Assembly: GCA_038231435.1 (NCBI GenBank)
Contig: JBBRLJ010000065.1
Span: 1 to 20,978 of the forward strand
Reading direction: 5' to 3'
Origin: Planctomycetota bacterium
Lineage (GTDB): Bacteria; Planctomycetota; UBA11346
Length of the DNA: 20,978 nt
Positions 141 to 19,195 of the stretch are shown one piece after another. Position 1 is the stretch's first letter; each line of letters begins with the position of its first letter. The translations under genes were made by a program, and so were the position numbers. The notes beneath the pieces were generated by a model that saw only the letters and a list, made by a program, of their open reading frames with translations, was not told the DNA's origin and ran no database searches.

Positions 141-508
141 CCGACATGAGCCTCTATGCAGCGATGACTCTTATCCTCGATCCATCCACTTCCAAGTCGA
201 TGTGCGAGTCATCGAGGGTGTGCTAGCGCAATGGTAAGCTTTTGGAGCATCTCAGTGCGGAGCATCGCTCATCCAGGTGGCTTCGGTTCCGACCCAGCAG
301 GCATTTCGCAGAGAGGCGTCTGCACGCCTTCGCTCGGACGGGATCCGAATTTGGTACTGCAGGCTCACGGGCTCTGCCAGATGAATGATGGAATTGGTCT
401 CTCATCCGGCCTAACCTGCAGCCGATGACCCACGCGGAGGCCGCTGATCTGGATTACTATAACCGGAGGGGTGCCACTTGGCTGGCGTTGTCGAGGTATC
501 TCGGCGAG

Positions 509-1774
509 ATGGAGGCATTGCCCCGGTTTCACCATCGCCGAATCGGATACTTTCTCATTCGCGCCGCCGCAGTGATCGCCGCCGCTTCAATCTGCATTTC
601 CATTGTGGCCATGAATGTCGCTATGGCATTGGCGGCGCTCGGTTGCTTGTTGTCGCGACCACCGCTGCATCGGATTCCGTGCTTCGCCGTCGGTGCGCTG
701 TTTTCCGGGTGGATTTCGGCCACCATCGTCATCGGCATCGGGCTCGGGGCGGTTGCATCAGACGTGCGGATCAGCGGCCTCATCCACACGTGGACGATCT
801 TTCTGGTCGGCATGATCGCTTTCGCCGATCGTAGAACCCTCCGCGCCGCGGCATTGGCCATGGCATCAGCGTCGTTGATCTCGGCAGCATTGGCCTCAGC
901 GCAGTTCTTCGGCGGTCTGGGTACCCGGGCCCCATTGAGGTTCGACCCTTCCGGGCCCAGGCTTGTCACAGGCGTGGGTTTTTTCTCGATCCACCTGACT
1001 CAGGGCTATGTCCTGGCCATCGCCATGCTGGTCTTCACGGCATCGGGGAACCGGATCTCGGTTCGTGCCCGTCTCGTCGGAGGAGTAGCGGCCGTGGCAG
1101 CCGTCGCGTTGAGCGCCTCTCGCGCGGCATACCTCTCACTGGCGATGGGAATCGGGGCGATGATCGCATCCCGAGGCGCGCGGCATATCATATTCGGTGG
1201 TGTGATAGGCTTGCTCTTGCTGGGTGTTTTCGCGTTGTTCCTGGGCGAACTCGATGGGCGCCTGGTCCGGCCGAGCGCGGTGACGACGGACGGACGCTGG
1301 GCGATCTGGCGTACGTCGCTTCAGATCGTGCGGGAGCATCCAATGTTGGGAGTGGGGGGATCGGATGCGTTCAAGGCAGAGTACGCGCGGGTATACCCCC
1401 TGGTTGAGCCGATCGTCCCGAATGAATTTCCGCAGGGAGCTCCCCATGCGCATAACAGTTTCTTATCGATAGCCGCCGAGCACGGCATCCCCGCACTCGT
1501 GCTGTATGTGGCCCTGATGATCGCCGTGCTCGTCGCCATCAGGAAAAAACAGGCCTCGGGCAGGGGATGGAGCTTAGCCGTTGGAGTCGTCGCTTCGACC
1601 ATGACGGCAGGCTGCTTCGAGGACATCGCGGGCCACAGCATACCGGCCTATGCATTCTTCCTTGCCCTCGCGTTCGCTTACTGGCTGCCTGGCGATATGG
1701 CCGAAAAAGAGGCGAGCGGACGGATCACCGATTCAAGTCCCACGCGAATGCAAAAGGCAGCGAAAAGCGCATAG
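509..1774 (+). CDS. O-antigen ligase/polymerase family (WaaL/Wzy_C-like) membrane protein
   Basis: Multi-TM protein with SASRAAYL, 'RWAIWRTSLQIVREHPMLGVG' and 'HAHNSFLSIAAEHGIPALVLY' motifs. Start uncertain (ORF open from 425; ATG 509 chosen). Confidence 0.85.
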   Translation: MEALPRFHHRRIGYFLIRAAAVIAAASICISIVAMNVAMALAALGCLLSRPPLHRIPCFAVGALFSGWISATIVIGIGLGAVASDVRISGLIHTWTIFLVGMIAFADRRTLRAAALAMASASLISAALASAQFFGGLGTRAPLRFDPSGPRLVTGVGFFSIHLTQGYVLAIAMLVFTASGNRISVRARLVGGVAAVAAVALSASRAAYLSLAMGIGAMIASRGARHIIFGGVIGLLLLGVFALFLGELDGRLVRPSAVTTDGRWAIWRTSLQIVREHPMLGVGGSDAFKAEYARVYPLVEPIVPNEFPQGAPHAHNSFLSIAAEHGIPALVLYVALMIAVLVAIRKKQASGRGWSLAVGVVASTMTAGCFEDIAGHSIPAYAFFLALAFAYWLPGDMAEKEASGRITDSSPTRMQKAAKSA

Positions 1775-1839: not shown

Positions 1840-2889
1840 TCAGCGACCATCAGCGCTCGCTGGAGACACGGGGGCCCTTATCGAGGAGCCAGGTTCATCG
1901 GGCCGAACGGCGGCCGGCCCTTCCTCACAACCGAAATTGAGGCGTGCTTGTTCAGTGACCAGCGGGCGTTTGCGAACCTGGAAATGGATCGCGCTGACGT
2001 ATTCGCCCAGAATTCCGAAGAAGAACATCTGAATTCCGGAAAAGAAGAAGATCGCGACGATCAGCGTGGGGATTCCGGGAGGGGCCAGGGTTCCCAGGTA
2101 GATGAAATTCGCGATCAGGGTGATGCAGGCGAAGGCAATGCTCAGCCCAGCGAGGATGAAGCCGAACAACATGCACATGCGCATGGGAAGATTGGTGAAT
2201 GAGATGAGTCCATTGAGTCCCTGGTCGACAAGATGGAAAATGCGGTTTTTCGAAAACCCACGCTTTCGAGCTTTCCAGGTGTAAGCGACGCCAATGGTGC
2301 GGAAACCGCAGCTGGCGATCATGCCCCGGATATAGGGATAGTGGTCATCGAATTTGCGCAGCGCGGTGATCACGCAACGGTCGACGAGTTGGAACTCGCC
2401 CACATCGGGCGGGATGTGGATGTCGGCGAATCGGCTCACCGCGCGGTAGTAGACTTTGCGCACGATGCGCATCAGCAGACCCTCTTCGCGGTTGGCGCGG
2501 ATACCGTAGATGACCTGATGGCCTTCTTCCCACTTGCGGACGAAGTTGATGATGATCTCGGGAGGATCCTGGAGGTCTGCGGCGAGCAGGACGACCACCG
2601 CATCTCCACTGGTGGCGAGGACCCCATTGAAGGTGGAGCGGAAGGGGCCGAAGTTTCGGGCGTTGAAGATCACCTTCACACGCGGATCCTCAAGAGCCAT
2701 GCGACGCAGCGTGGCGGGTGTGCCGTCGCGCGAAGCATTGTCGCAGAAGATGTGTTCGAAGTCGTAAGTCGGGAGGCTCTCAGCGAAGATCCGTGCCACC
2801 ACCCGGTGGCACTCCTCGACGTTGTCTTCCTCGTTGTAGCACGGAGTGACGATGCTGATGAGCTTGGGACGCTCGGGGTGGTGGTTCAT
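1840..2889 (-). CDS. GT2 polyprenol-phosphate glycosyltransferase (GtrB/DPM-synthase-like), copy 1
   Basis: ISIVTPCYNEEDN, DNASRDGT, RNFG, AADLQDPPE, two C-terminal TM helices, GILGEYV, RKRP. ATG at 2889 aligns with the start of copy 2. Confidence 0.9.
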   Translation of the reverse strand: MNHHPERPKLISIVTPCYNEEDNVEECHRVVARIFAESLPTYDFEHIFCDNASRDGTPATLRRMALEDPRVKVIFNARNFGPFRSTFNGVLATSGDAVVVLLAADLQDPPEIIINFVRKWEEGHQVIYGIRANREEGLLMRIVRKVYYRAVSRFADIHIPPDVGEFQLVDRCVITALRKFDDHYPYIRGMIASCGFRTIGVAYTWKARKRGFSKNRIFHLVDQGLNGLISFTNLPMRMCMLFGFILAGLSIAFACITLIANFIYLGTLAPPGIPTLIVAIFFFSGIQMFFFGILGEYVSAIHFQVRKRPLVTEQARLNFGCEEGPAAVRPDEPGSSIRAPVSPASADGR

Positions 2890-3088
2890 GCCGTTGCCTC
2901 GAGAAATGAACAACCATGGGTATCTGGATATGTCATAAGGAATATGCAGTCACTTCGGAGCGAACTGGTGATCACGTACCTGTTCTGGAAAATAGGCCCT
3001 CTGAACGCCATGTGGAATGGTAGCATTGTCGAAGAGCGTGTGGCGGCAAACGGAGAAACGGCTTCGGTAGAGTCCCCTGCGTACTACC

Positions 3089-4543
3089 TTATCCTCGCGG
3101 ATCCAACGCCTTCGACCCCTCGGGCACCTTGCGTGTCGACCCGGTGTGCGGCGCCGCATTGACGAATTCGCTGTCGGCGCAGGCTTCGCGATTGACCTCG
3201 TTGAACGCCGCGATGATGGCGTCGAGGCTGGCCTTGGACTCGGTCTCGGTCGGCTCGATGAGCATGCTGTTGTGCAGGTGCTTGGGGAAGTATACGCAGC
3301 CCGCTCCGACCAGGGTGGGAGGATGGATGCCGAGGTCGATCAGGCGCTTGGCGAAGCTGTAGGGGGTGATCGGTAGAGACCTGCCAGATAGCAGGCATTC
3401 GTGCATGCAGTGCTTGTCGAAGGCGGGTGGCAGGATCCCGCGCAGGTGGTGCTGCAGGTAGTTGGCGTTCAGCACCGCATCCTGGGATGCCTCGCGCAGT
3501 CCATCGGGGCCCATCGAGAGGATGTAGCAGTAAGCGCGGATCAGCACGCCGATGTGACCCAGATGCGACTTCATCCGGCCGATCGAGTCGCGCATGCCAT
3601 CGTCTAGCGAGAAATGGCCCTGGGCGTCGAGGCGCACCACCGGCTTTGGGAAATGCTCGGCGAGGAAGCGCTTCACGCCCACCGGGCCGGCCCCCGGGCC
3701 GCCGCCGCCGTGCGGGGTGGACAACGTCTTGTGGGTATTGATGTGCACGACATCGAAGCCCATGTCGCCCGGACGGACCAGGCCCATCAGCGCATTGAGG
3801 TTCGCGCCATCGTAATACAGCAGTCCGCCCTTGGCGTGGACCATCGCGGCGATGCGCGCGATGTTGGATTCGAACAGGCCCAGCGTGGAAGGATTGGTGA
3901 GCATCAGCCCAGCGATGCCCCCGCCTTCGAGCGCGCGCGCGAGCGCGTCGAGATCCATCAGGCCGGACGCGTCGGTCGCGACGATGCGGCAGGTGAAGCC
4001 GGCCATCGACGCTGACGAGGGATTGGTACCGTGCGCCGAGTCGGCGATCAGCAGGATGTCGCGTTTTTCTCCGCCTTTCGCCGCGAGTTTCTCGAAATGC
4101 TTCTTGATGATGAGCAGGCCGGTGAGTTCGCCATGTGCGCCGGCCGCCGGCTGCAGGCAGACTTCGTCGACGCCGGTGAGTTCGGCGATGTGCCGCGCGA
4201 GCGCGTGCAGTAGTGCGAGCACGCCTTGGATGGTGGACTCGGGCTGCAGGGGGTGGACGTGGCGGAAGCCCGGCAGGTTGGCGTTCGCGTCATGGCGCTT
4301 CGGGTTGTACTTCATCGTGCAGGAGCCGAGCGGATAGGCCCCGTTGTCGACGCCGTGGCTGCGGCTGCTGAGCTGGGTGAAATGGCGGACGACTTCGACC
4401 TCGGCGACCTCGGGCAGGGCAAGCGACGTGACGCGACGCGGCAAATCGCCGAGGTCGGGCTCGGCGTCGGCCGGAAATTCACCGTCGCGCACCCAGGCGC
4501 CGCCGGCTCCGGGCCGGCTACTCTCGATCAGGGTGGGCTTCAT
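3089..4543 (-). CDS. gcvPB: Glycine dehydrogenase (decarboxylating) P-protein subunit 2-like, PLP-binding
   Basis: YPLGSCTMKYNP, QPAAGAHGELTG, SAHGTNPSSA, LMLTNPSTLG, YYDGAN, HINTHKTLSTPHGGGGPG (PLP Lys), IEPTETESK. TGATG overlap with the gcvPA stop. Confidence 0.92.
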   Translation of the reverse strand: MKPTLIESSRPGAGGAWVRDGEFPADAEPDLGDLPRRVTSLALPEVAEVEVVRHFTQLSSRSHGVDNGAYPLGSCTMKYNPKRHDANANLPGFRHVHPLQPESTIQGVLALLHALARHIAELTGVDEVCLQPAAGAHGELTGLLIIKKHFEKLAAKGGEKRDILLIADSAHGTNPSSASMAGFTCRIVATDASGLMDLDALARALEGGGIAGLMLTNPSTLGLFESNIARIAAMVHAKGGLLYYDGANLNALMGLVRPGDMGFDVVHINTHKTLSTPHGGGGPGAGPVGVKRFLAEHFPKPVVRLDAQGHFSLDDGMRDSIGRMKSHLGHIGVLIRAYCYILSMGPDGLREASQDAVLNANYLQHHLRGILPPAFDKHCMHECLLSGRSLPITPYSFAKRLIDLGIHPPTLVGAGCVYFPKHLHNSMLIEPTETESKASLDAIIAAFNEVNREACADSEFVNAAPHTGSTRKVPEGSKALDPRG

Positions 4544-5919
4544 CACGCCACCGCCTTCGCGAATGCGGCGGCCATGCGCTCGAGTTCAGCCCTGGTCTTG
4601 GTTTCGGTGACCGCCACCAGGATGGTGCCGGGGCGGCCGAGCGTCGCGCCATCGAGGCCGCCGAGGATCCCGCCGTCGAGCAGCCGCGCGAGAGTCTCGG
4701 TCGATCTGGGTACGGTGACCAGGAACTCGTTGAAGACCGGCGCGCCGCAGGCCCGGCGCACGCCCGGGATGCGCGTGAGCGCGTCCGCGAGGAACTGGGT
4801 CTTGGCGGCGATGATGCGCGCGAGGCGGCGCAGCCCGGTGTCGCCGAGCAGGCTGAGGTAGATGGCGGCGCGCACGCTGCACAGTGCCTGGTTCGAGCAG
4901 ATGTTGCTGGTCGCCTTCTCGCGCGCGACGTGCTGCTCGCGGTCCTCGTGCACCAGCGCGTACGCGGGATTACCGTAGATATCGGCGACCTTGCCCACCA
5001 GGCGCCCGGGCATGTGCCGGCGCAGATCCTTGCGGCAGGCGAGGAAACCCAGTGTCGGTCCGCCGGCGCACAGCGGGATGCCCAACGGCTGGCCTTCGCC
5101 GCAGACGATGTCGGCGCCCTGCTCGCCGGGCACCTGCAGCAGGCCGCTGAGCAGTGGATTCCACGACACCGCGGTGATCGCGCCGTGGCGGCGGCAGACT
5201 TCGGAGATCTTCGCCACGTGCTCGATCACACCAAAGCGATTGGGAGACTGCACCAGCACCACCGCCGGCGATGAGGCAGCGAGGAGGCGTTCGAGCGCCG
5301 CCAGGTCGACCCGCCCAGACTCTGCTTCGCAAGGCAGGTCGGCGAGGTCGACGCCACGGCCATACATGTAGGTACCCAGGACCTCGCGGTGCTGCGGCCA
5401 AAGCGTGGCGGCGGCGATGACCACGGGCGTGGCGCCTGATCCGGCTTTCATCGCCAGTGCCTGGCGTCCCACCCACGCCGCGTCGGCTAGGGCGGTGGCG
5501 CCATCGTAGGATGACGAGTTGACCACCGGCAGGCCGGTGATCGCGCCGATTGCCTGTTGGTACTCGGCCAACGCCTGCAGCAGGCCCTGGCTCATCTCGG
5601 GTTGATAGGGGGTGTACGCGGTCAGGAATTCGCCGCGGCTGGCGATGGCATCGACCACCGCAGGGACGTGATGATCGTACATCCCGCCGCCGAGGAAGCT
5701 GAGGTGCGTGCGGGTGGTGGCATTGCGGTCCGCGAGGGCACGCAGATGGGCGTCGAGCGCCCATTCGGACATCGCGGCGGGGACATCGAGCGCTCTGGAG
5801 AAACGCAGGTCTTTGGGGATGGCGGTGAAGAGATCATCGATCGAGCCGAGGCCCATCGACGTCAACATCGCATCCCGGTCGCTGGGCAAGTGGACGATGT
5901 AATTGGCCAGATCGGCCAT
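4543..5919 (-). CDS. gcvPA: Glycine dehydrogenase (decarboxylating) P-protein subunit 1-like
   Basis: FLGGGMYDHHVP, EFLTAYTPYQPEMSQGLLQ, YDGATA, GEGQPLG, MPGRLVG, REQH..REKATSNICSNQAL. Confidence 0.92.
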   Translation of the reverse strand: MADLANYIVHLPSDRDAMLTSMGLGSIDDLFTAIPKDLRFSRALDVPAAMSEWALDAHLRALADRNATTRTHLSFLGGGMYDHHVPAVVDAIASRGEFLTAYTPYQPEMSQGLLQALAEYQQAIGAITGLPVVNSSSYDGATALADAAWVGRQALAMKAGSGATPVVIAAATLWPQHREVLGTYMYGRGVDLADLPCEAESGRVDLAALERLLAASSPAVVLVQSPNRFGVIEHVAKISEVCRRHGAITAVSWNPLLSGLLQVPGEQGADIVCGEGQPLGIPLCAGGPTLGFLACRKDLRRHMPGRLVGKVADIYGNPAYALVHEDREQHVAREKATSNICSNQALCSVRAAIYLSLLGDTGLRRLARIIAAKTQFLADALTRIPGVRRACGAPVFNEFLVTVPRSTETLARLLDGGILGGLDGATLGRPGTILVAVTETKTRAELERMAAAFAKAVA

Positions 5920-6175
5920 CTGAGGTCGCTCCGGTCACCGATCCGAGGCTGCCGCGAATGCGAGCGCTGCACCAGTACGGCTACAGGCGGCATGTTTGAC
6001 GAGGTGTCCGGAGTGTCAACCGCAAACCACGAGAAAACCAGCTCTTGCGGACGTCCGAGCCAGAGTGGCGCGAGCGCACCGCTTGCGCACGACACCACGC
6101 GTCCATACCGTGCGTCCCGCCCCCGACAGCGTGGGGACGTGGCCGGAAAGGCCGATTCCTCCGGAGGGATGCACG
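5920..6175. promoter_or_regulatory. Divergent promoter region between gcvPA and the asnB-like gene
   Basis: 256-bp gap between head-to-head genes. Contains TTGAC-N14-GTCAA (5996-6019), whose right half is a perfect TTGACA on the minus strand. GGAGG lies upstream of ATG 6176. Confidence 0.45.
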
Positions 6176-7924
6176 ATGTGCGGCGTTGCAGGAGTGGTAG
6201 GCAGCAGGTCGGCCGAGCCGGCGCAGGTCGCCGAGATGATCGCATGCATCCGCTACCGCGGCGTCGACGAGGCGGGCGTCGAGGACCTCGGCCACGCCAT
6301 CCTCGGCCACGCGCGCTTGGCGGTCGTCGATCCGAAGAACGGCCACCAGCCGATGTCCAACACCGACGATTCGGTGTGGGTGGTGTTCAACGGCGAGATT
6401 TACAACTACGTCGAGCTGCGCGAGGAGCTGAAGGCCAAGGGCTACGTCTTCAAATCCCGTTGCGACACCGAGGTGCTCGTTCACCTGTGGCGCGAGGAAG
6501 GCGAGGCGATGCTGCAGCGCCTCATCGGCATGTTCGCATTCTTCATCTGGGACAAGACGGCGAATACCGGCATCCTAGTTCGCGATCGATTCGGCATCAA
6601 GCCGATGTTCATCGCCGACCACCAGGGCGGCACCGCCTTCTGCAGCGAGATCAAGGGCCTACTCTCGCTGCCCGGCATGCGCAAGGAGATCGACCGCGAC
6701 GGCCTGGTGCAGACCTTCTCATTTAACTACTGCCCGCCACCGCGCACTTGCTTCGCCGGCATCCGCCACCTTGAGCCTGGTACTTTCCTGCGCTTCAAGC
6801 CGGGCAAGCCCACCGAGCAGGTGCGCTGGTGGAACTGGCCCTTGTTCGACGAGCGCCGCGAGCCGGGCTTCGATGAGCTCAAGTCTCTGCTCGACGACGC
6901 GGTGCGCATGCAGATGCGCTTCGACGTCGAAGGCGGCCTCTACCTCAGCGGCGGCATCGATTCGTCGGTGGTGGCGAGCCACCTGCGTACGCAGTGGAAC
7001 CGCCCGCGCCTGCCGGCCATCGGCCTGCGCTTCAAGGAGCAGGACTACTCCGAATACGATTATTCGCAGCAGGCCGCATCGATCCTGGGCATCGATCTCG
7101 AGCCAGCTGACATCGAGTGGTCGATGATCCCCGAGATCGCCGACCAGGTCGTGCGTCATGCCGAGCAGCCGCACGGCGACTTCTCGTTCTTCCTGTTCTA
7201 CGTGCTCGCGCGCAAGGCGAATCGCCAGAAGAAGATCGTGATGTTCTCAGGCGACGGCCCCGATGAGGCACTGTTCGGCTTCAACCACAACGTCAATTTC
7301 TTCCACGCCAACGCGCGCACCAATTTCCCGCTCAAGGCCTACTTCGATACCATCTGCTACATGGACGAGGGGGCCCGGGCACGCCTGCTCTCTCCGGATC
7401 TCACCCGCGGCACCACCGATCCCCTCGACCGCTTCGGCGAGATCATCGAACCGTGGCAGGATCTCGATCCCGTCGAGCAGGTGATCGCCTACGAGTGCAC
7501 GTCGCTGATGCCCGGCAACAACTTGGTCAAGGGCGACCGCATGGGCGCCGGCTGGTCGACCGAGGGCCGCTCGCCATTCCTCGACCACCGCGTGATGGAG
7601 TTGTTCACCCGCCTGCCGGTCGGCCGCAAGATCCAAGAGGGCGTGGGCAAGGCCTACTTGAAGGCCTACGCCGCGAAGATCTTTCCCGAGCAGTTCGTGT
7701 ACGGTAAGAAGCGCATGCCCACTACGCCCATCGGCAACTGGCTGCAGGGGCCGCTCTACGGTTGGGCCAAGTCGGTCATCGAAAGCGAGACCAACGGCAT
7801 CTTCAACCGTCCCGCGGTCTCGGCGCTGCTCGAGGAGCACCGCTCGGGGGCGGCGAACCATACGCGTTCGCTGCGCACCATCCTGATGGCTCATCTGTGG
7901 CTGAAGGCATTCTTCCCCGCCTGA
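6176..7924 (+). CDS. asnB: AsnB-like class II (Ntn) glutamine amidotransferase / ATP-dependent amide synthetase
   Basis: Starts MCGVAG (catalytic Cys). GHARLAVVD, FNGEIYNY, DTEV, GMFAF, RDRFGIKP, LSGGIDSS, SGDGPDE, RSPFLDH. True start is ATG 6176, not 5996. Confidence 0.9.
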   Translation: MCGVAGVVGSRSAEPAQVAEMIACIRYRGVDEAGVEDLGHAILGHARLAVVDPKNGHQPMSNTDDSVWVVFNGEIYNYVELREELKAKGYVFKSRCDTEVLVHLWREEGEAMLQRLIGMFAFFIWDKTANTGILVRDRFGIKPMFIADHQGGTAFCSEIKGLLSLPGMRKEIDRDGLVQTFSFNYCPPPRTCFAGIRHLEPGTFLRFKPGKPTEQVRWWNWPLFDERREPGFDELKSLLDDAVRMQMRFDVEGGLYLSGGIDSSVVASHLRTQWNRPRLPAIGLRFKEQDYSEYDYSQQAASILGIDLEPADIEWSMIPEIADQVVRHAEQPHGDFSFFLFYVLARKANRQKKIVMFSGDGPDEALFGFNHNVNFFHANARTNFPLKAYFDTICYMDEGARARLLSPDLTRGTTDPLDRFGEIIEPWQDLDPVEQVIAYECTSLMPGNNLVKGDRMGAGWSTEGRSPFLDHRVMELFTRLPVGRKIQEGVGKAYLKAYAAKIFPEQFVYGKKRMPTTPIGNWLQGPLYGWAKSVIESETNGIFNRPAVSALLEEHRSGAANHTRSLRTILMAHLWLKAFFPA

Positions 7925-8003
7925 TTCCCGCCCGAATCTGTCCGATTCCGACCCGACCCGACCTCGACAATAGTGCAGTCACAACGTCCCAAAGAGGCCC
8001 CTG

Positions 8004-9299
8004 ATGCTGAGCTCGATCGCGAAGTCCGAAAAGATCGACTACTTCCTGGTCAGCTTCGTCGACCTTGCCGGCGTCATGCGTTCGAAGCTCGTCCCGGCCC
8101 GCGCCATCGACATCATCGCCGGTGAAGGCGCCGCCTTTGCCGGCTTTGCCACCCACCTCGACATGACGCCAGCTTTCCCGGACATCGTGGTGATGCCCGA
8201 CGAGTCGACCCTCACCATGCTGCCGTGGCGAATTGGGGTCGCCTGGTTGACCGGTGACCTGATGATGGATGGCAAACTCGTCGAGCACGCCCCGCGCGCG
8301 GTGCTCGGACGCCAGCTCGAGGCGGCCACGGCCGCTGGCCACGTGATGAAAACCGGCGTCGAGCCCGAGTTCTTCCTGCTCGCGGCCGATGGCTCGGGGC
8401 CCGCCGATCCGCTCGACGCGGCCGCGAAGCCCTGCTACGACCAGGCGGCGCTGATGCGGCGATTCGATCTCATCAAGGAGATCTGCGATGCCATGCAGTC
8501 GCTCGGCTGGCAGCCCTATCAGAACGATCACGAGGACGCCAACGGCCAGTTCGAGATGAACTGGAAGTACGCCGACGCGCTGGTCACCGCCGACCGCCAC
8601 GCATTCTTCAAGTTCATGGTCAGGTCGCTTGCCGAGAAGCACGGGTTGCGCGCGACCTTCATGCCCAAGCCGTTCTCGCACCTCACCGGCAATGGCTGCC
8701 ATTGCCATGTATCTCTGTGGGACAAGACAGGAAAAAAGAACCAGTTCGTCGACCAGAAGGGTGATCTCGGGCTGTCGCAGCTCGCCTACCATTTCCTGGG
8801 TGGCGTCCTCGACCACGCGCAGGCGTTGTGCGCGGTCACCAACCCCACTGTGAACAGCTACAAGCGCCTCAACGCGGCGCGCACCGACTCCGGTTCAACC
8901 TGGGCTCCGCGCACCGTGTCCTACGGCGGCAACAACCGCAGCCACATGGTGCGAATTCCCGCCGGCGACCGCTTCGAGTTCCGGCTCGGCGACGGGGCCG
9001 CGAACCCGTACCTACTCCAAGCCGGCCTGCTCGCCGCGGGGCTCGATGGCGTGCGCAAGAAGACCGCTCCCGGCAAGCGCATGGACATCAACATGTATGA
9101 GAGCCGCGATCTGGGTGGCGCCAAGCTGCTGCCTGGAAACCTGCTCGACGCGCTGCGCGCGTTCACCGCCGATCCGGTGCTGCGCGCTGCTCTCGGCGAG
9201 CGCTTCCACGAGACCTACCTTCGCCTGCGCATGGGGGATTGGAACGGTTCGATGGCCCAGGTCAGCGAGTGGGAACGGAAGCAGCTGCTGGACGTCTGA
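8004..9299 (+). CDS. glnT: GlnT-type (type III) glutamate-ammonia ligase / gamma-glutamylmethylamide synthetase (GmaS)-like
   Basis: YFLVSFVDLAGVMRSKLVP, FAGFATHLDMTP, GVEPEFFL, KPCYDQ, YQNDHEDANGQFEMNW, ATFMPKPF, TGNGCHCH, NSYKRL, NNRSHMVRIP, RFEFRLGDGAANPYL. These match the GlnT/GmaS subfamily rather than GlnA type I. Confidence 0.85.
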   Translation: MLSSIAKSEKIDYFLVSFVDLAGVMRSKLVPARAIDIIAGEGAAFAGFATHLDMTPAFPDIVVMPDESTLTMLPWRIGVAWLTGDLMMDGKLVEHAPRAVLGRQLEAATAAGHVMKTGVEPEFFLLAADGSGPADPLDAAAKPCYDQAALMRRFDLIKEICDAMQSLGWQPYQNDHEDANGQFEMNWKYADALVTADRHAFFKFMVRSLAEKHGLRATFMPKPFSHLTGNGCHCHVSLWDKTGKKNQFVDQKGDLGLSQLAYHFLGGVLDHAQALCAVTNPTVNSYKRLNAARTDSGSTWAPRTVSYGGNNRSHMVRIPAGDRFEFRLGDGAANPYLLQAGLLAAGLDGVRKKTAPGKRMDINMYESRDLGGAKLLPGNLLDALRAFTADPVLRAALGERFHETYLRLRMGDWNGSMAQVSEWERKQLLDV

Positions 9300-9350
9300 A
9301 CTCGCTGGTTGATTCCTGGCAGAACATGTGAACCAGGGAGTAGCGCTCGA

Positions 9351-10340
9351 TCACCTCGGCGGTTCCACCGCCGGAGTGTCGGTAAAATTCAACCGCCCCT
9401 GCTCAGTCACCAACGGTCGTTTGCGCACCTGGAAGTGGATGGCGCTGACGTATTCGCCGAGGATGCCGAAGAAAAACATCTGGATGCCCGAGAAGAAGAA
9501 AATCGCCACGATCAGAGTAGGGATGCCGGGAGGAGCCAGCGTGCCCAGGTTGATCAGATTGATGATCAGGGTCGCGATCGCGAAGGCGATGCTCAGTCCT
9601 GCCAGGATGAAGCCGAGGAGCATGCACATGCGCATGGGCAGGTTGGTGAACGAGATCAGGCCGTTCAGGCCCTGGTCGACGAGATGGAAGAGCCGGTTCT
9701 TCGAGAAGCCGCGCTTGCGCGCCTTCCAGGTGTAGGCGACGCCGGTGGTGCGGAACCCACAGCTGGCGATCATGCCGCGGATGTACGGATAGTGGTCGTC
9801 GAATTTCCGCAGCGCAGTGATCACGCAGCGGTCGACGAGTTGGAATTCGCCCACATCGGGCGGGATGTGGATGTCGGCGAAACGGCTCACCGCTCGGTAG
9901 TACGCCTTGCGCACGATGCGCATCATCAACCCTTCTTCGCGGTTGGCACGGATGCCATAGATCACCTGATGGCCTTCCTCCCACTTACGGACGAAGTCGA
10001 CGATCACTTCCGGGGGGTCCTGCAAGTCGGCGGCGAGTAATACGACCACCGCGTCGCCGCTGGTGGCGAGCACGCCATTGAACGTGGATCGGAAGGGGCC
10101 GAAGTTGCGCGCGTTGAAGATCACCTTCACTCGCGGGTCCTCGAGCGCCATGCGACGCAGCGCTTCCGGCGTCCCGTCTCGAGAGGCGTTGTCGCAGAAG
10201 ATGTGTTCGAGGTCATAGCCCGGCAGGCTGTCGGCGAAGATCTTCGACACCACCCGATGGCATTCCTCGACGTTGTCCTCCTCGTTGTAGCAGGGAGTGA
10301 CGATGCTGATGAGCTTGCGTCGCTCTGGTTGATCGGTCAT
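9351..10340 (-). CDS. GT2 polyprenol-phosphate glycosyltransferase (GtrB-like), copy 2
   Basis: Same motifs as copy 1. ATG at 10340 overlaps the GtrA-like stop (ATGA). The ORF-track extension to 10805 is spurious. Confidence 0.9.
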   Translation of the reverse strand: MTDQPERRKLISIVTPCYNEEDNVEECHRVVSKIFADSLPGYDLEHIFCDNASRDGTPEALRRMALEDPRVKVIFNARNFGPFRSTFNGVLATSGDAVVVLLAADLQDPPEVIVDFVRKWEEGHQVIYGIRANREEGLMMRIVRKAYYRAVSRFADIHIPPDVGEFQLVDRCVITALRKFDDHYPYIRGMIASCGFRTTGVAYTWKARKRGFSKNRLFHLVDQGLNGLISFTNLPMRMCMLLGFILAGLSIAFAIATLIINLINLGTLAPPGIPTLIVAIFFFSGIQMFFFGILGEYVSAIHFQVRKRPLVTEQGRLNFTDTPAVEPPR

Positions 10341-10738
10341 GTCGCGGCCTTGTCCGGAAATACGAAGGCGCGCAGCGCGCCCCAAGTTGCGATAACCACG
10401 ATCGGCAGGCACAGCAGCTGCGCCAGCAACGGATCGGCGATCCAGGCACCGCGCACGATCCTGAGCAGTCCCAGGTTCAGCAGGTATGACCCCGTGTACA
10501 CCAGTAGAAAACGCGCGAGGGCCCCGTATCCCCGCGCGCGGAATACCAGCGTGCGGGCGATGGCGAAGTTGAATGCCACGCCTACGCAGGTCGCGAGGAG
10601 CAAGGCGGCGGATGCCGGCGAGCCCGCGAGGATCAGTAGCGCATAGATACCGTAGCCGATGGCGGTATTCAGCGCGCCGACTACGAGGAAGCGCACGAAC
10701 GGGCGTTCCCAAGCAACGGACGCGATCATCCGCATCAT
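10337..10738 (-). CDS. GtrA-like polyprenol-phosphate sugar translocase
   Basis: ~130 aa, about 4 TM segments, 'FVRFLVVGALNTAIGYGIY', 'FNF...RTLVFR', C-terminal 'RAFVF'. Coupled to the GT2 gene. Start uncertain (10729-10756). Confidence 0.88.
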   Translation of the reverse strand: MMRMIASVAWERPFVRFLVVGALNTAIGYGIYALLILAGSPASAALLLATCVGVAFNFAIARTLVFRARGYGALARFLLVYTGSYLLNLGLLRIVRGAWIADPLLAQLLCLPIVVIATWGALRAFVFPDKAAT

Positions 10739-10881
10739 GCTCGCGATACCGGACAACGAGCCATACGGAAACGGTCACATGGTGGCATACCGGTTCCAAC
10801 AGCATTGGCCCATCCTCAGGACGTGCAAACGCAGAAGCTCCAGAATGGGATCAGGGATCGCTCCGTCCGTCCTGGACAGGG

Positions 10882-12842: not shown

Positions 12843-15800
12843 CTAGAACTCCTGCCCCAGTTGTCGCCTCACCAGCTCGCGTTGCGCTCCAGCCGCGATC
12901 ACTTTCAACAGCTCGTCTCCACCCGGCAGATCCATGCCGGCGAGGCGCTCGCACACCTGGGCCATGCGGTTCTCGGCCTGCAGGTAGGTGGACAGGGTGT
13001 CCCACAGTCGGTTCTCGGTCAGGTAGGTCTTGCACCAGGTGAGGCCTTCCTTGTAGACCATGCGGCTGGCGAGGCGCTTGGAGAGGATGGCGACGCGATG
13101 CGGGCGCGGGATGCGCGTCTCGATGCGCTCCCGCCAGCGCTCGACCAGGAGCGGCGGGCAGTGCGCCTGGAGATGCCGCGTCCAGGTCTCGGCCATGTCC
13201 GGGTCGGCGAGATGCGCGTCGATGGCCGGCTCGAGCAGGCCGCTGACGCGGTTGATCTCCTCGCTCAGCTGCTGCGACAGATCGCTCAAGCGCGCCGCAT
13301 GCCCGCGGCGCTTCCAGGCGGCGATCAGGGCCTGGGCCTCGGCGCGCGCGCGTTCGCGGATGATCTCGAGCACCTCGGCGACGTAGCGTTCCTTGACCGC
13401 GATGAACTCATCGTCGCTGAGCACCAGGCCGGCGAGCACCTCGTAGCTCGAGCAGATCACCCCGCCCTTGTTGGCGGACGAGTCCTTGATGTCGATCAAG
13501 CCTGCGTCCTCGAGATGGCGCCGCGCCGCCGGGGTCAGGAAGATGTTCGCGCCCTCGACCATCGCGCGCGCGGTCGGCTTCCCATCAGCGCCAAGGAATT
13601 GCTTCCAGTTCTCGTCGTTGATGGTGTAGGGACGTCCTCCGCACGGCACGAACAGGTCGGCTGGAACGGTGTTGTGCAGCGAATTGCGCAGGTCCTCGCC
13701 TGCCTTGTCGGTCGCGGCGGTGACCTTGCCCTCGCGCGACAGGCGCGCGGCGTTGAAGCGCGCGATGCCCTGGCTCTCGCGCACCAGGCGCAGCAGCTCC
13801 TTCCAGTCGAGGCCCTTGGGATCAGTCGCGCTGCCGGTGCCGTCGGCGATCGCAACCACCTTGGCGCGCGAGCCGTGCTCGCGCTCGAGCACCTTGATCA
13901 GGTTGCCGCCGACGTCGCCGTCGGGGCCGCCGGTGATCTTGACCGTATACGGCTTCCCTTCGGGGATGCCGACCAGCGGCAGCACCAGGCTGATCCAGCG
14001 GAAAATGCCCTCGGAGGTGACGCCGAATTCCTTGTGGTTGATCCCCGAACCGGGCTTGGACGACATCAGCGTGGCGTGGTGCGGCAGGCCGCGCGATTTT
14101 GCGCGCGCCGCCACCCACGAGATGCGTTCCGGCGTCATGTTCTCGTCGGGACCGAGGAAGATCAGGTCCGCTTCGCGTTTCTCGCCGTGCGCGCCGACCA
14201 CATCGGGCACCGACTCGGGCGGCAGGATGAGGTCGAGCAGCGAATCGACCAGCTGCCTGACCGCGCCGTCGGCGTTGCCGCCGGGCTCGACCAGGGCGAT
14301 GCACTTGCTGCCGCCCTCGGGTATGTCCTTGTTCTTCAGCTGCTGGGCCCAAGCGAGGTCGTAGACCTCCTTGAGCACTCCATCTCGCGCGCGCTCGTAC
14401 TGGCCGGGATTGCGTGGGATCAGCACGCGCAGCCCGCCACGCGCCGAGGCGCGGAAGCGGATGTGGAAGCCGCGCGCCTGCGGACCATGGAAGTAGAACA
14501 TCCCGTACGGGCGATGGGTGAAGCGCGCCGCAGGCAGCACCTCGGGATCGAGCTTGAACGCGAGTCCGAGACGTTCGGGGCGGAAGGCGTTGGTCAGGCG
14601 CATCGCCCCGACGAACGCGAGCATGCCCTCGAGCACCGCGGCATGGCTGCGCGGCTCGATCGCATGGGCCTTGGCCAGCGCCGCTTGCTGGCGTTTCTCC
14701 CACGTGGCGCTTCCGGGTCGCGCGCCCGGATGGAAGCGCGCCGAGATCAGATCGCACAGCTCGCGGCAAAGATCGCCCTGCGACGCGACCACCTCCTCGC
14801 CGACCTCGGTGACATCGAGGTACGGATAGTCGTGGGCGAGCAGGTAGGTCGAGAAGCCGATCGCGGCGCGCAGGAGCGCCAGCTGATCGAGGCCATAGCT
14901 GCCATCGAGGTAGCGCGCCGCCAGGCCATCCTGGTATTGCCGGCGCACCTGGCGCAGATCGTCTTCGACCAGGCCGATGAGCTTGTCGCCGAGCGTCTTG
15001 CCCGCGGCGGTGGTGACGTAGATGGTGGCGATGATCGCCTTGGCGCCGCCCGCGACCGCCGGCACGTAGTCGAGGTAGCCCCGTGCGAGCGTCAGTCCGT
15101 GCCGACGCATCACGCGCGCGGCATGGCCGAGGAGCTCCCAGGGCGTGACGCCGGCGGTGGCCACGAGGATGCGGGTGGCGTGGTCGTCGCCGTGGTCGTG
15201 GGCGAGGTGGATGTCCTCTTCGGAGGCGAGCGAACTCCAGGCGCGGATGTGGCGGACCACGCGTTCGACGTTCGAGCGCGCGAGGTAGCCCGGATCGACC
15301 GCGTCGAGGAACCGCCCGGCGACGGTCGAGCAGCCGTCATCGCCAGCGCACGCCGCTTCCAGGATCTTGGCGCGATGGGCGGCCAGATTCGGAGTGGCGG
15401 GCAGCTGATCCTTACCGTAGCAGAACGCGTAGAGGAATAAGCCGCGATCGCGGCTGGTGTGCAGCTCGACGCGGTGGATCAGGCGTTCGGAGAAGCCCTT
15501 GGTGTCCGCTCCCCGGGTCTCGACCAGCGCCATCACGTCGAGCAGCGAATGCAGGTCGGGTTTGCCGAACACCAGCAGCTTACCGCTCGAGCTGTCGTCG
15601 ATCACGCTCAAGCGCGGTTCGTCCGCGCGCCTGACCATATGGATCATCTCGAGATGGAGGGCCTGCTCGCCGGGGCTGGTGACCTGGAAGTAGGTCTGTG
15701 GCATCTGCGCGTAGAACCATCGCACCGTGGTCTCGAGGTCGCCCAGGATGTGCTCCTGGATGCGCGCGAGCATGGCGGCCGCCTGCGGCCCGGCGGCAAC

Positions 15801-15845
15801 GCTTCTGGCGGACGATCCCGAAGACTGCCCACTGCGTGAAGCCAT
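12843..15845 (-). CDS. Large (~1000 aa) NAD-specific glutamate dehydrogenase
   Basis: GFHIRFRASARGGLR, KNKDIPEGGSK, FLGPDEN, SSKPGSGINHKEFGVTSEG, GGPDGDVG, PCGGRP, VEGANIF, KDSSANKGGVICSSYEV. ATG 15845 follows a GGGGG RBS; ORF open from 15902. Confidence 0.9.
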   Translation of the reverse strand: MASRSGQSSGSSARSVAAGPQAAAMLARIQEHILGDLETTVRWFYAQMPQTYFQVTSPGEQALHLEMIHMVRRADEPRLSVIDDSSSGKLLVFGKPDLHSLLDVMALVETRGADTKGFSERLIHRVELHTSRDRGLFLYAFCYGKDQLPATPNLAAHRAKILEAACAGDDGCSTVAGRFLDAVDPGYLARSNVERVVRHIRAWSSLASEEDIHLAHDHGDDHATRILVATAGVTPWELLGHAARVMRRHGLTLARGYLDYVPAVAGGAKAIIATIYVTTAAGKTLGDKLIGLVEDDLRQVRRQYQDGLAARYLDGSYGLDQLALLRAAIGFSTYLLAHDYPYLDVTEVGEEVVASQGDLCRELCDLISARFHPGARPGSATWEKRQQAALAKAHAIEPRSHAAVLEGMLAFVGAMRLTNAFRPERLGLAFKLDPEVLPAARFTHRPYGMFYFHGPQARGFHIRFRASARGGLRVLIPRNPGQYERARDGVLKEVYDLAWAQQLKNKDIPEGGSKCIALVEPGGNADGAVRQLVDSLLDLILPPESVPDVVGAHGEKREADLIFLGPDENMTPERISWVAARAKSRGLPHHATLMSSKPGSGINHKEFGVTSEGIFRWISLVLPLVGIPEGKPYTVKITGGPDGDVGGNLIKVLEREHGSRAKVVAIADGTGSATDPKGLDWKELLRLVRESQGIARFNAARLSREGKVTAATDKAGEDLRNSLHNTVPADLFVPCGGRPYTINDENWKQFLGADGKPTARAMVEGANIFLTPAARRHLEDAGLIDIKDSSANKGGVICSSYEVLAGLVLSDDEFIAVKERYVAEVLEIIRERARAEAQALIAAWKRRGHAARLSDLSQQLSEEINRVSGLLEPAIDAHLADPDMAETWTRHLQAHCPPLLVERWRERIETRIPRPHRVAILSKRLASRMVYKEGLTWCKTYLTENRLWDTLSTYLQAENRMAQVCERLAGMDLPGGDELLKVIAAGAQRELVRRQLGQEF

Positions 15846-15983
15846 CTGAACCCCCATACAAGTATACACCGCCGCCAGGGTTGCGACAGATGCCATGCGC
15901 ACTCGCCTCGACGCTCAAAGCCCGGCCTGCTGGCCCCGTGGACATGGACTGGAGCTGGCCGCGGACTACGATCGGAGACCCTC

Positions 15984-16595
15984 ATGGATCCGCTCGTGGT
16001 CTTCTCTGCGTGCGGCTCGGTCATCGGCGCGCTGCTGGTGTTCTCCTGCCTGGTGCTGTTCGGCGTGTGGATCGTGCGCGTGCTCGCGCTGCCGCAGGAT
16101 CTGCCGCTGCCGCTGCGCTTCGAGCCCGCGCCACCACCTGTGCGTCCGCGCGGGGATCGCGCCGAGGCGGCCGTGACCGCCGCTAGGCAGTCGCGGCTGC
16201 GCGCGGTGCAGGCCCAGGCGCTGATGGCGACGCAGTTCGCGCACGCCTGCCAAGATTTGCTGACCCAAGCCGAGAGCCTCGCCCCCGGAGCTGTCTCCGC
16301 GGAACCGCTCGCGACCCTGCGCACCGCCGAGTCCGTCGCGCGCGTCGCGGCCGAGAACGCGGAGCGCGGGCGCGCCGGCGATCTCGAGGCCGGCGAGGCC
16401 GACGCTCCGGGATGGGTCGCCAGCGCGCGCGAGGCGTATGAGCGGGCCGCTACCGCGGCGGCGTCGCTGCCGCAGGAGTCATCGCGCCGCAAGTGGCTGC
16501 TGCTGGCGATCGCGGTGCTGGCGATCGCCTGGCTGGCGGCCATCATCCTGTACGGACACCTGCATGCCCCTGGCGCTGGAAGCTCAGCTTATTGA
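15984..16595 (+). CDS. Hypothetical membrane protein (N- and C-terminal TM helices, Ala-rich helical middle)
   Basis: GGAG RBS before ATG, strong GC3 codon bias, two hydrophobic stretches. 3' end overlaps the radC start. Confidence 0.7.
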   Translation: MDPLVVFSACGSVIGALLVFSCLVLFGVWIVRVLALPQDLPLPLRFEPAPPPVRPRGDRAEAAVTAARQSRLRAVQAQALMATQFAHACQDLLTQAESLAPGAVSAEPLATLRTAESVARVAAENAERGRAGDLEAGEADAPGWVASAREAYERAATAAASLPQESSRRKWLLLAIAVLAIAWLAAIILYGHLHAPGAGSSAY

Positions 16596-17502
16596 CCGGC
16601 CCGAGCCGACGCGCCGCTTCCTGCGCGCCGCGGTGGCTCTGGACGAACCCACGGTGCCGGCGCTGGTCGGAGCAGGCGTGCCGCATTGGGATGCCAGCGA
16701 GTTCATCCGCCGCCTACAGAGCGCTGGCGAGATGTGCGCGTCGCGGTGGCTCGACGAGGCGCGGACCTCCTACGAGACACTGATCGCCACTCCTGACGAG
16801 GCGGGTGAGGGATCCCGGGCGGATGGCTTCCCGGCCGGCGCCGAACGGCCCCGCGAAAAGGCCCTCGCGGGCGGCATCGGATCGCTCACCGACATCGAGC
16901 TCATGGCGCTGCTCTTGCGCACCGGCTCGGCCGAGGAGGGGGTGCTCGCGTTCGCCGAACGGCTGCTGCGCGATCACGACGGCCTGGTCGGCCTGGCCCG
17001 GCGCGGTGTCGAGGACCTGGTCCGCGACGACGGCCTGGGGCCGGCGAAGGCCGGCGAGCTCGCGGCCGCCTTCGAACTCGCACGACGCTTGGCGCAGAGC
17101 AGCCTGCGCGAGCGGCCGACGCTGAAGACGCCCGAGGCGGTCGCCGAGCTGCTCGGCCCGTTGGCGGTCAGCCTGGCCCACGAGGAGCTGTGGTGCCTAC
17201 CGCTGGATCCGCAGAGCCGGCTGATCGGCAGGCCGCGGGTGATCTCGAAGGGCGACGTCGACGGAACCGATGCTGGGCCACGGGCCTTCTTCCGACTGGC
17301 CCTGGCGGCGGGAGCCACCAGCTGCGTCGCCGTGCACAATCATCCGGGCGGCGATCCCGCGCCATCGGCGGCCGATCGCGGCGCCACCCGCCGGCTCGCC
17401 GAAGCCGGCCGCGTGCTCGACCTGCCCTTGGTCGACCACGTGGTGCTGGGTTCGGCGGGGCGTTACGCGAGCATCAGGCGCCTGCATCCGGAATGCTTCT
17501 GA
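16564..17502 (+). CDS. radC: RadC/JAB (MPN+) domain protein with N-terminal extension
   Basis: ERPREK, LTDIELMALLLRTG, GLGPAKA, ELARR, HNHPGGDPAPSAAD, LVDHVVLG. ATG 16564 is the most plausible start. Confidence 0.88.
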   Translation: MPLALEAQLIDRPEPTRRFLRAAVALDEPTVPALVGAGVPHWDASEFIRRLQSAGEMCASRWLDEARTSYETLIATPDEAGEGSRADGFPAGAERPREKALAGGIGSLTDIELMALLLRTGSAEEGVLAFAERLLRDHDGLVGLARRGVEDLVRDDGLGPAKAGELAAAFELARRLAQSSLRERPTLKTPEAVAELLGPLAVSLAHEELWCLPLDPQSRLIGRPRVISKGDVDGTDAGPRAFFRLALAAGATSCVAVHNHPGGDPAPSAADRGATRRLAEAGRVLDLPLVDHVVLGSAGRYASIRRLHPECF

Positions 17503-17572: not shown

Positions 17573-19195
17573 TCATCGAGGCGTCATCGGACACGCATCC
17601 ACCACCAGGAGATCGTGGATCCATGCATCGAAACGTGTCTCGTCAACGCGCTCCCAGAACATCGCCGACATCACGGCGTATACGCTGGGAAGCCGATCCG
17701 CGTGGATTTCCACGCGCACGCGCGGATCCCGGTGGCGATAGTTGTTCACGTTGAAATTACCTGGGATGAAGTCATGGAGATCGGGGATCTCCGTGCCCGT
17801 CTCGTCCAGATTGCGAGCATACCTGGTCTCATCCGCGAAGACCATCTTCATCATTCCGCAATATTCATAGAACCGAAACACCTGATCCAACGGGTTGAAA
17901 TCGTTGGTCAGGTCGTTGATCCAGAATGAGGTGTTCCGTCTGATGAGATCGTTGCTGGACATGCTCCGCATGACCGCGAGCTGCTTATACCAGTCGCGTT
18001 GGTACTCGAGATGCCGGTGCATGGTCATCGTGCCGGCAGCGAGGACCGATGCGATGAGCAACGCATGTTTGAGTCTGCGCAACGCGGGCGATCGATCCAG
18101 CAACGCAGCGAGTCCGAAACAAATGATGAAGGAGATGCCGAGAGGCATGAGCAGTTGGTGGCGATCGTCCCAGTCGAACGGTCTCGGGATCTTTCCGACG
18201 GCAACGTACGGATAGATTCCGAGGATGAGCATGACTCCCCCGAGGGACATGAGGAGCAGGCAGGTCCCGGTGTCCGCCACGAAGCGTTTCCGGAACGGCC
18301 AGAGGGTGATCAGGGCGACGCCAGCGAACAGGATATACGCGGTACGCCGGGGCCACTCCGGGAAGATGCCGTAGCACATCCCATAGAGCAGGTGGTTCAG
18401 CGTGCGTTCGATACCTTCGGCATTCCTCAATCCGCCGAGCGTGATGTGGTTGTAACCCGCGTCCTCAGGCTTCCAGAACGCCAGCCGGAAGACCGAATAT
18501 ACGAGAGGAAGGAGCAGGAAATCCAGGTGACGGACCGCAAGGCCGAATGCCGCGCGCCGGCCTGTTCTCAATGCGGCGACGTTACGGTAGATCAGATATG
18601 CGACGATCAGCGGATAGAATGCCAGCAAGGACATGGTTGAGAAGGACAGTGCGGCGAGCGCCAGTACCGCCAACCGCCAGCCGAGGCGCCCGCTGCTGGT
18701 GAAGCGCGAGGCGCACCAGAATGCGCTGAAGAACAGCAGATAGCAAACCGCGTAATGGAAGCAGGCGATGGAGATTCGAGCGGTATTGACGGGGATCAGG
18801 GCGAAGAGCGAGCACACGGCCAAGCGCGTGACCGGATCGATCTGATGCATGGTGCGCAGGATGGAATAGAGTGCCAGCGCGGCACCGAGATAGCACCCGA
18901 AGGTGGCGATCCGGTATGCGGCTACAGGCCAGGGCAATGCCGAGAAGAAGCCATGGAGACTCGAGAGCAGCGGGATCCCCAGCGAATCGAGATGATTCGC
19001 GACCAGGAGCGGGTCGCACCCGACGATACACCAATCGTCCCAGTACAGACCATGATTGAGCAGCATCACGCCGTGGAACAGGCTGTAGACGATGGTCAGG
19101 AGCCACGCGCCATGGGATGCTGCGAGCTGCGCCGGTTTCCAGTCTGAGCCATGCATCCGATCGATTTCCGGGGATGCCTGATGAATGTCAATCAT
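17573..19195 (-). CDS. Polytopic GT-C-like membrane protein (GtrC/GtrII-type candidate)
   Basis: 540 aa. First TM is followed by the acidic YWDDW loop, then ~11 TM segments and a soluble C-terminal domain. ATG 19195 overlaps the upstream stop (ATGA). Family is inferred from architecture only. Confidence 0.6.
   Translation of the reverse strand: MIDIHQASPEIDRMHGSDWKPAQLAASHGAWLLTIVYSLFHGVMLLNHGLYWDDWCIVGCDPLLVANHLDSLGIPLLSSLHGFFSALPWPVAAYRIATFGCYLGAALALYSILRTMHQIDPVTRLAVCSLFALIPVNTARISIACFHYAVCYLLFFSAFWCASRFTSSGRLGWRLAVLALAALSFSTMSLLAFYPLIVAYLIYRNVAALRTGRRAAFGLAVRHLDFLLLPLVYSVFRLAFWKPEDAGYNHITLGGLRNAEGIERTLNHLLYGMCYGIFPEWPRRTAYILFAGVALITLWPFRKRFVADTGTCLLLMSLGGVMLILGIYPYVAVGKIPRPFDWDDRHQLLMPLGISFIICFGLAALLDRSPALRRLKHALLIASVLAAGTMTMHRHLEYQRDWYKQLAVMRSMSSNDLIRRNTSFWINDLTNDFNPLDQVFRFYEYCGMMKMVFADETRYARNLDETGTEIPDLHDFIPGNFNVNNYRHRDPRVRVEIHADRLPSVYAVMSAMFWERVDETRFDAWIHDLLVVDACPMTPR

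Follow-up and report, generated by a model that had tools for sequence, protein, structure and literature searches.

The DNA window analyzed here, positions 1 to 20,978 of contig JBBRLJ010000065.1 (20,978 nucleotides; assembly GCA_038231435.1) from a Planctomycetota bacterium of lineage UBA11346, contains a four-gene cassette in which the P-protein genes gcvPA and gcvPB diverge from an asnB-like amidotransferase gene and glnT, a gene of the glutamate–methylamine ligase (GmaS) type (Table 1). An initial annotation of this DNA proposed that the genes form a methylamine relay that N-methylamidates a surface glycan, and its description of four genes facing away from one 256-bp region was confirmed, with intact open reading frames (ORFs) and the same coordinates and spacer. 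Comparative analysis shows that the cassette is a real and conserved pathway module, apparently undescribed, and very probably one functional (alkyl)amine relay.

When 8000 homologs of the window AsnB were scored, 237 reached E ≤ 1e-100, and the best 120 of these are 56–67% identical to it; a GcvPB search likewise revealed a clade. Members of these cassette-linked clades are marked with an asterisk (GcvPA*, GcvPB*, AsnB*). Locus searches by single protein recovered one relative among 160 loci, and clade motifs were required instead; exact DNA-motif scans over 185,579 species genomes yielded 68 AsnB* loci and 96 GcvPB* stretches, 80 of them with DNA. Among the AsnB* loci, gcvPB occurs in 55, glnT in 51 and both in 49, compared with gcvP or glnT in 0 of 79 other asnB loci, bearing out the co-occurrence anticipated in the initial annotation. 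The AsnB* loci contain no gcvT, gcvH or glutamate-synthase domain (0/68), and gcvT and gcvH are missing from all 105 gcvP* or asnB* loci; control housekeeping gcvPB loci carry gcvT in 76 and gcvH in 41 of 79 cases. Gene order is gcvPA–gcvPB–asnB–(glnT) in 55 of 55 loci, where gcvPB immediately precedes asnB and shares its strand. Carriers, by record title, include Burkholderiales, Alphaproteobacteria, Nitrospina and Verrucomicrobiales, with Polaromonas aquatica and Acidovorax benzenivorans among cultured strains, and gcvP* was not found on plasmids. Across unrelated bacteria the four genes recur as one conserved unit. The operon is otherwise colinear, and the 256-bp divergent spacer reflects its local rearrangement in the source genome; the divergent layout and the gtr/ligase context, first read as features of the pathway, are peculiar to the source genome.

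GcvPA* (support 0.999) and GcvPB* (0.997–0.999; FastTree) branch apart from housekeeping P-proteins, even those that the same genomes carry as second copies. GcvPB* retains the pyridoxal phosphate (PLP) lysine K273, GcvPA* retains YTPYQ and REQH..R.KA, the GcvP* proteins keep the YTPYQ, GSCTMKYNP and HGTN motifs, and the fold of GcvPB resembles P-proteins in an AlphaFold model (pLDDT 82; insertion block 62). Set against 27 housekeeping proteins, the canonical LQxREQHIRR becomes xEDREQHVAR across the clade, with R changed to A in 88%, and reads HEDREQHVAR in the window GcvPA*. GcvPB* further gains an LVGAGC insertion (412–417), in which Gly-Ala-Gly-Cys is invariant in 100% of the clade, and loses a basic C-terminal tail (RRxDEVxAAR) that most fetched second copies keep. 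We take the HIRR motif and this tail to be the H-protein docking surface, and the invariant Cys of the inserted loop possibly serves as a proton donor replacing the lipoyl arm. A second P-protein is present in 28 of 38 gcvP* genomes tested. In the source genome a separate single-chain housekeeping gcvP (957 aa, 37–39% identity) lies on contig C4, with gcvH on C67 and gcvT on C30, so the cassette does not hold the genome's sole copy, a possibility raised with the initial annotation.

The GmaS-type assignment of GlnT also held. The window protein has GmaS 7CQL from Rhodovulum as its best Protein Data Bank (PDB) match (E 1e-164), and the Polaromonas copy has glutamate–methylamine ligase 9QUR (E 2e-147). 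All 17 residues of Rhodovulum GmaS (RhGmaS) compared, drawn from the available text of PMC7948447 and including K30′, Y147, Q175, D177, E179, E186, N188 and R312, are identical in the window GlnT and in all full-length cassette copies aligned; this identity extends to 67 of 74 aligned sequences, and the other seven are non-cassette. Ala48′ and Trp300 stand where glutamine synthetase has its catalytic Asp50′ and Glu304. Because cassette copies fall in two GmaS clades (support 1.0 each), each mixed with catabolic gmaS, the function of GlnT rather than its lineage is conserved; of four dedicated clades envisaged in the initial annotation, those of GcvPA*, GcvPB* and AsnB* were recovered (0.997–1.0) and that of GlnT was not. 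A gene of the MgsC type, a match judged from model coverage and lying beside gmaS in five genomes, is found in 5 of 5 genomes that have gcvP* and asnB* but no local glnT, versus 2 of 36 others (41 genomes), and gmaS is encoded elsewhere in four of those five. MgsC is scored as absent from the source genome because its one glutamate-synthase-domain gene sits inside a 1534-aa frame on a different contig, and an mgsABC set was not found in this 88%-complete genome, in which mgsA, mgsB and mgd were without searches of their own. Since no MgsC-type gene occurs in the source genome or in 34 of the 36 others, use of GlnT appears biosynthetic rather than catabolic, and methylamine catabolism was rejected as the role of the cassette.

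AsnB* forms a clade with support 1.0 (FastTree) and contains Cys1, the Arg/Asn/Gly/Asp glutamine-binding residues and the SGGxDSS loop. In the window protein, YRGVDE (YRGxDE) replaces the HRGPD of glutamine-using members. At position 27, just before Arg28, 90% of the clade have Tyr, whereas 98% of 45 other AsnBs have His. Tyr27 is present in 56 of 56 readable AsnB* loci with local gcvP*/glnT, and the 11 AsnB* loci without them divide into five Tyr (four with gmaS elsewhere), five His and one Phe. The same association appeared in an independent set of 80 metagenome loci with 53 clade members, 44 of which were readable (some contigs are short): gcvP*/glnT accompany 29 of 33 Tyr-type AsnB* versus 0 of 11 His-type. 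His27 is found on at least four separate branches of the AsnB* tree, and five AsnB* genomes lacking both gcvP* and gmaS, in which the canonical glutaminase motif is partly restored, probably make a plain amide. In the PDB, the AsnB* profile matches the hydroxyamidotransferase 7YLZ best, and the equivalent of position 27 is Cys in that enzyme. Linkage to GmaS and covariation of Tyr27 are indirect signs that AsnB* may take an N-substituted glutamine as donor. A further locus (L393, genome G538, 4786–9036) encodes glnT, a glycosyltransferase (GT)-like gene and a His-type AsnB* beside an aldolase.

The predicted link to polysaccharide loci was found in the company of AsnB*: of 68 loci, NeuA/B/C genes occur in 43 (NeuB in 37), WbuX in 34, an HpcH-type aldolase in 49, a short phosphoglycosyl transferase (PGT) in 46 and a GT-B protein in 43, and a MurJ-like flippase, SDR and GFO oxidoreductase are also among the neighbors. 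In 46 of the 49 aldolase loci just PGT, MurJ, gcvP or glnT genes separate the aldolase from asnB*. The initial annotation had expected a uronic acid acceptor of the WbpS/WbqG type; the loci instead combine nonulosonic-acid genes with the aldolase, the window AsnB* scores 381 against the TIGR03108 cut-off of 817, and a UDP-sugar dehydrogenase was seen once (L218) among the annotated neighbors, which comprised 90 cluster representatives and, for 47 loci, 111 of the 244 singleton ORFs. The uronamide was dropped as the preferred product. Searching with the aldolase alone gave 13 loci, found in five of 401 genomes of the Gammaproteobacteria class, in six of 300 from the source phylum and on two plasmids with the same protein. 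In eight of them an ordinary AsnB with HRGPD lies no more than a few kb away, and in two an AsnB*. These ordinary aldolase-linked AsnBs branch as sister to AsnB* (0.981, 69 sequences) and share with it QPHGDxSF, GDGxDE and PGNNLxKxDRM in the synthetase domain; from this sister relation and the shared motifs we infer the same acceptor and a different donor, and gcvP or glnT is present at 0 of 6 genome loci of the ordinary enzymes. Where HpcH enzymes bind their metal, the aldolase still has Glu and Asp, whose roles we assign by assumption, and neither Shewanella nor Morganella is named among the best 120 of 3394 aldolase homologs.

The available text of PMC4052302 describes shewanellose, a C4-branched carboxamide sugar, beside an 8-epi-legionaminic acid derivative in Shewanella putrefaciens A6. 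Such a sugar would result if pyruvate were joined to a 4-keto-6-deoxy-HexNAc and the adduct then amidated. Region C24:46–65 kb of the source genome carries dehydratases, LegC-, NeuC-, NeuB- and NeuA-like genes, MurJ, the aldolase, a PGT and a GT; WbuX was not found in the genome. GFO, NeuA and SDR are presumably an 8-epimerase trio. The C24 locus is without asnB, and its PGT directly adjoins the GT at the point where Burkholderiales carry the cassette and where a genome of the same family has an ordinary asnB. The source genome has no full AsnB apart from that of the window, and C24 and the window together hold the putative shewanellose gene set of aldolase, amidotransferase, 4,6-dehydratase, PGT and legionaminic acid-type pathway. 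Farther along, C24:67.7–75.5 kb (L357) encodes an NTP transferase, a dehydratase, a DegT-family enzyme, a TPP enzyme, another HpcH aldolase and an SDR and is, by gene content, a putative second branched-sugar module.

We propose a mechanism in which co-occurrence, clades, residues and gene absences are directly observed and all chemistry is deduced from them. Slow release of methylamine by P-protein alone was reportedly observed by Hiraga and Kikuchi. GcvPA*/GcvPB* would decarboxylate glycine and protonate the intermediate without transfer to H-protein, giving methylamine, which GlnT, with an active site near-identical to that of characterized GmaS, would join to glutamate as γ-glutamylmethylamide. 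AsnB* would then cleave this carrier and transfer its methylamine to a carboxylate activated by adenylation. This carboxylate would most probably be that of the pyruvyl branch put on a 4-keto-6-deoxy-HexNAc by the co-encoded HpcH-type aldolase. The predicted product is a shewanellose-type sugar carrying an N-methylamide, within an O-antigen or capsule repeat that also has an (8-epi-)legionaminic acid derivative; for the source genome we predict that the cassette serves the C24 aldolase and legionaminic acid locus in trans. Methylamine is probably the relayed amine, and the aldolase product is with equal likelihood the acceptor; the full mechanism, a biosynthetic amine relay that would N-methylate a sugar amide without S-adenosylmethionine (SAM), we hold with a confidence slightly above even.

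GcvP* also occurs in other surroundings. AsnB* contigs account for 43 of the 80 GcvPB* loci; the other 37 were handled as lacking asnB, including one with a truncated AsnB* at the contig end (L293) and one from the same assembly as an AsnB* locus (L267 and L225). In the gcvP*-only loci (L241–L313; for example L244, L248, L308 and L255), gcvPA* and gcvPB* are followed by a response regulator and often by a Cache/HAMP chemoreceptor or Che-type cluster, possibly a glycine/methylamine signaling module; gmaS was found in none of nine tested genomes with gcvP* loci lacking asnB. In three ATP-grasp clusters (L307/L394, L309 and L287) from Pseudomonas caricapapayae, Paraburkholderia and Gynuella, gcvP* adjoins glnT without asnB in the series carbamoyltransferase, PhyH dioxygenase, ATP-grasp, gcvP*, glnT and exporter, which looks like a small-molecule pathway based on γ-glutamylmethylamide. 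Polyangium loci (L250 and L281) follow gcvP* with a fused D-proline reductase PrdA/B, a proline racemase and an amino-acid permease, and GcvPA* and GcvPB* seem fused in frames of ~900–960 codons in several lineages (L173, L180, L193, L194, L207, L234, L287 and L309). Tentatively, at slightly less than an even chance, we suggest that the GcvP* clade consists of stand-alone glycine decarboxylases making methylamine in at least three modules, for shewanellose-type N-methylamidation, small-molecule synthesis and signaling.

Several observations weigh against the glycine-to-glycan relay. No asnB* accompanies 36 of the 80 gcvP* loci, 33 of which lack glnT too, and the response regulator beside 23 and the chemoreceptor beside 13 of the 37 loci handled as lacking asnB are unexplained by the relay. 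The four single-chromosome Verrucomicrobiota in which gcvP* is the sole P-protein do encode gcvH-like genes. Four Tyr-type metagenome loci show no gcvP*/glnT, and one of the five AsnB* genomes without gcvP* and gmaS has Tyr27 (L172). At L393, glnT and His-type AsnB* are present and gcvP* is absent from a near-complete genome, which may use outside methylamine. Thirty-nine of the 49 full loci are not independent, because they share a common Burkholderiales-type GlnT branch, and gene absences in the source genome (5.2 Mb) are provisional, since it is 88% complete. No aldolase is visible in the available DNA of 19 of 68 AsnB* loci, three of the 13 aldolase-found loci have no asnB nearby, and the literature searched holds no gene-to-structure link for shewanellose.

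Alternatively, the same relay could serve a nonulosonic acid (as an N-methylacetamidino, Leg5AmNMe7Ac-like group or a C1 N-methylamide) or a uronic acid, a reading we consider unlikely. It draws on the frequent NeuA/B/C and WbuX genes of AsnB* loci, on N-methylacetimidoyl-legionaminic acid in Campylobacter and Legionella (available text of PMC3958885 and PMC9912281) and on a proposal, a prediction only, that AsnB forms the acetamidino group in Tannerella (available text of PMC6120980). AsnB* is nevertheless tied more closely to the aldolase than to the Neu genes and shares its acceptor-domain motifs with aldolase-linked AsnBs, WbuX–HisH–HisF already accounts for amidine formation in 33 of 49 full loci, and the uronate-forming dehydrogenase was seen the one time. 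Were the aldolase instead to make an ulosonic acid by a route independent of phosphoenolpyruvate, the branched sugar would be wrong and the product another acid amide; the enzyme is distant from solved HpcH proteins (best E 0.002), but NeuB is already encoded in more than half of the loci, and the company of aldolase, PGT and AsnB fits an initiating branched sugar amide, making this very improbable.

With relay and acceptor unchanged, the amine itself could differ: alanine or serine, if decarboxylated by GcvP*, would lead to an N-ethyl or N-hydroxyethyl amide. Ethylamine and propylamine are both used by RhGmaS (available text of PMC7948447). The new loop and altered residues of GcvP* may likewise leave room for this. 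Its YTPYQ, GSCTMKYNP, HGTN and HK motifs, whose substrate roles we assume, nonetheless match glycine-specific P-proteins, and local glnT is missing precisely where the genome has an N-methylglutamate-type pathway; we judge another amine unlikely, slightly more so than another acceptor. Somewhat less probable still is that GcvP* works with GcvH (and GcvT) encoded elsewhere and gives ammonia or one-carbon units, with an ordinary primary amide as the product, or that GlnT scavenges methylamine with gcvP* as passenger. The source genome and most others do encode gcvH/gcvT, GcvP* clears the curated GcvPA/GcvPB cut-offs, L393 manages glnT and AsnB* without gcvP*, and GmaS can use ammonium, poorly (available text of PMC7948447). 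Set against this are the ordinary aldolase-linked AsnBs, which do without gcvP and glnT, the missing gcvT/gcvH at every gcvP* or asnB* locus, the four Verrucomicrobiota chromosomes, where no gcvT scores above cut-off, the Ala/Trp replacements in GlnT and a gene order strict across phyla.

The surroundings of the cassette in the window match the gtrA/gtrB/O-antigen ligase-like genes of the initial annotation, with a Wzy_C protein, two GtrB-like GT2 proteins and GtrA, and GlmS is also among the flank genes. As that annotation noted, gcvT, gcvH and mgs are missing from the window, with no family match in the 13–14 longest ORFs scanned, and the relevant genes lie on other contigs. The two flanking GtrB-like paralogs are 86–92% identical in amino acids and directly oriented, with their likeness confined to the coding region, and Wzy_C representatives of related loci have no match in the source genome (E 1e-6). 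AsnB* was found in 0 of 47 other genomes of the same family, where the best matches are 36–40% identical; this, the gtrB-like paralogs on either side and the local divergent layout suggest that the cassette is a recent arrival in the source lineage. Contigs from three of four sequencing runs span the divergent junction, one of them from a second study with 43 differences in 637 bases, and an assembly artifact was rejected on this ground. Rfam has zero matches across the window and no sigma-70-like promoter was found in 2800–9500; neither a riboswitch nor a promoter was thus found in the spacer. Elsewhere in the window are a ~1000-aa glutamate dehydrogenase-like protein (12843–15902, minus strand) matching the large NAD-GDH catalytic domain only partially, a RadC/JAB protein with ~95 additional N-terminal residues (16555–17502, plus strand) and a 541-aa membrane protein (17573–19198, minus strand) with no Pfam/NCBIfam match and two 38%-identical genome paralogs, for which a GtrC-like partnership with GtrA/B is a guess.

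Table 1. Cassette genes and flanking features of the window.
Feature	Position	Strand	Details
gcvPB (GcvPB*)	3089–4546	-	595 bits vs cut-off 441; intact ORF
gcvPA (GcvPA*)	4543–5919	-	497 bits vs cut-off 364; intact ORF
Divergent spacer, 256 bp	5920–6175	.	Between gcvPA and asnB-like gene
asnB-like (AsnB*)	6176–7924	+	TIGR01536 382 vs 267 bits; Cys1 present; intact ORF
glnT, GmaS-type glutamate–methylamine ligase	8004–9299	+	TIGR03105 621 vs 469.6 bits; intact ORF
Wzy_C-family membrane protein, ligase/polymerase type	425–1774	+	Candidate link to cassette
GtrB-like GT2, left flank	1840–2889	-	Paralog of right-flank copy; context
GtrB-like GT2, right flank	9351–10340	-	Context
GtrA, right flank	10337–10756	-	Context

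If correct, the relay would mean that a protein familiar as one part of a multi-enzyme system can by itself give aerobic bacteria a new route to methylamine from glycine. A glycan would thereby receive its methyl group from glycine C2, with neither SAM nor folate involved, and the predicted sugar would be one not described before. For shewanellose, the analysis yields the first candidate genes. The gene gmaS serves as a marker of methylamine consumers (available text of PMC7948447), and in cassette genomes this marker would then be misread, as would gcvP when taken to indicate glycine cleavage.

The literature searched, which covers neither supplements nor most subscription papers, contains no description of the cassette, and several known systems share parts of it. 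GcvP* has the fold, PLP lysine and core motifs of glycine cleavage P-proteins and passes their NCBIfam cut-offs; unlike them it forms a separate clade, lies apart from gcvT/gcvH, is usually a second copy, bears the LVGAGC insertion with its invariant Cys and has lost conserved basic residues. GlnT shares the 17 residues and the TIGR03105 score with GmaS of the N-methylglutamate pathway (gmaS–mgsABC–mgdABCD), and differs from it in the missing MgsC-type gene. SAM-dependent N-methylation of acetamidino-legionaminic acid in Campylobacter and Legionella likewise places an N-methyl group on a nonulosonate-containing glycan (available text of PMC3958885 and PMC9912281). It employs a methyltransferase, PtmH in Campylobacter, and under our best reading a different nitrogen. 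For the S. putrefaciens A6 polysaccharide, as described in the available text, the pairing of shewanellose with 8-epi-legionaminic acid fits the aldolase, PGT, AsnB, Neu and GFO/SDR genes; the shewanellose amide is unsubstituted there, and its N-methyl form is a prediction here. The closest parallels are TsnB9 in trichostatin biosynthesis (7YLZ) and FzmN/FzmA in fosfazinomycin biosynthesis, where AsnB homologs take hydroxylamine or hydrazine off a glutamyl carrier (available text of PMC6133997, PMC11160463 and bioRxiv 2026.09.23.753898) and, as in the proposed relay, an N-substituted glutamine donor is paired with amine–carboxylate joining by an AsnB fold. In the relay, by contrast, a P-protein would supply the amine, methylamine, a true GmaS would load it onto the carrier, and a surface sugar would receive it in place of a small molecule or peptide. 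The literature searched offers precedent for the carrier logic, but none for glycine as the source of the methylamine or for a glycan as its target.

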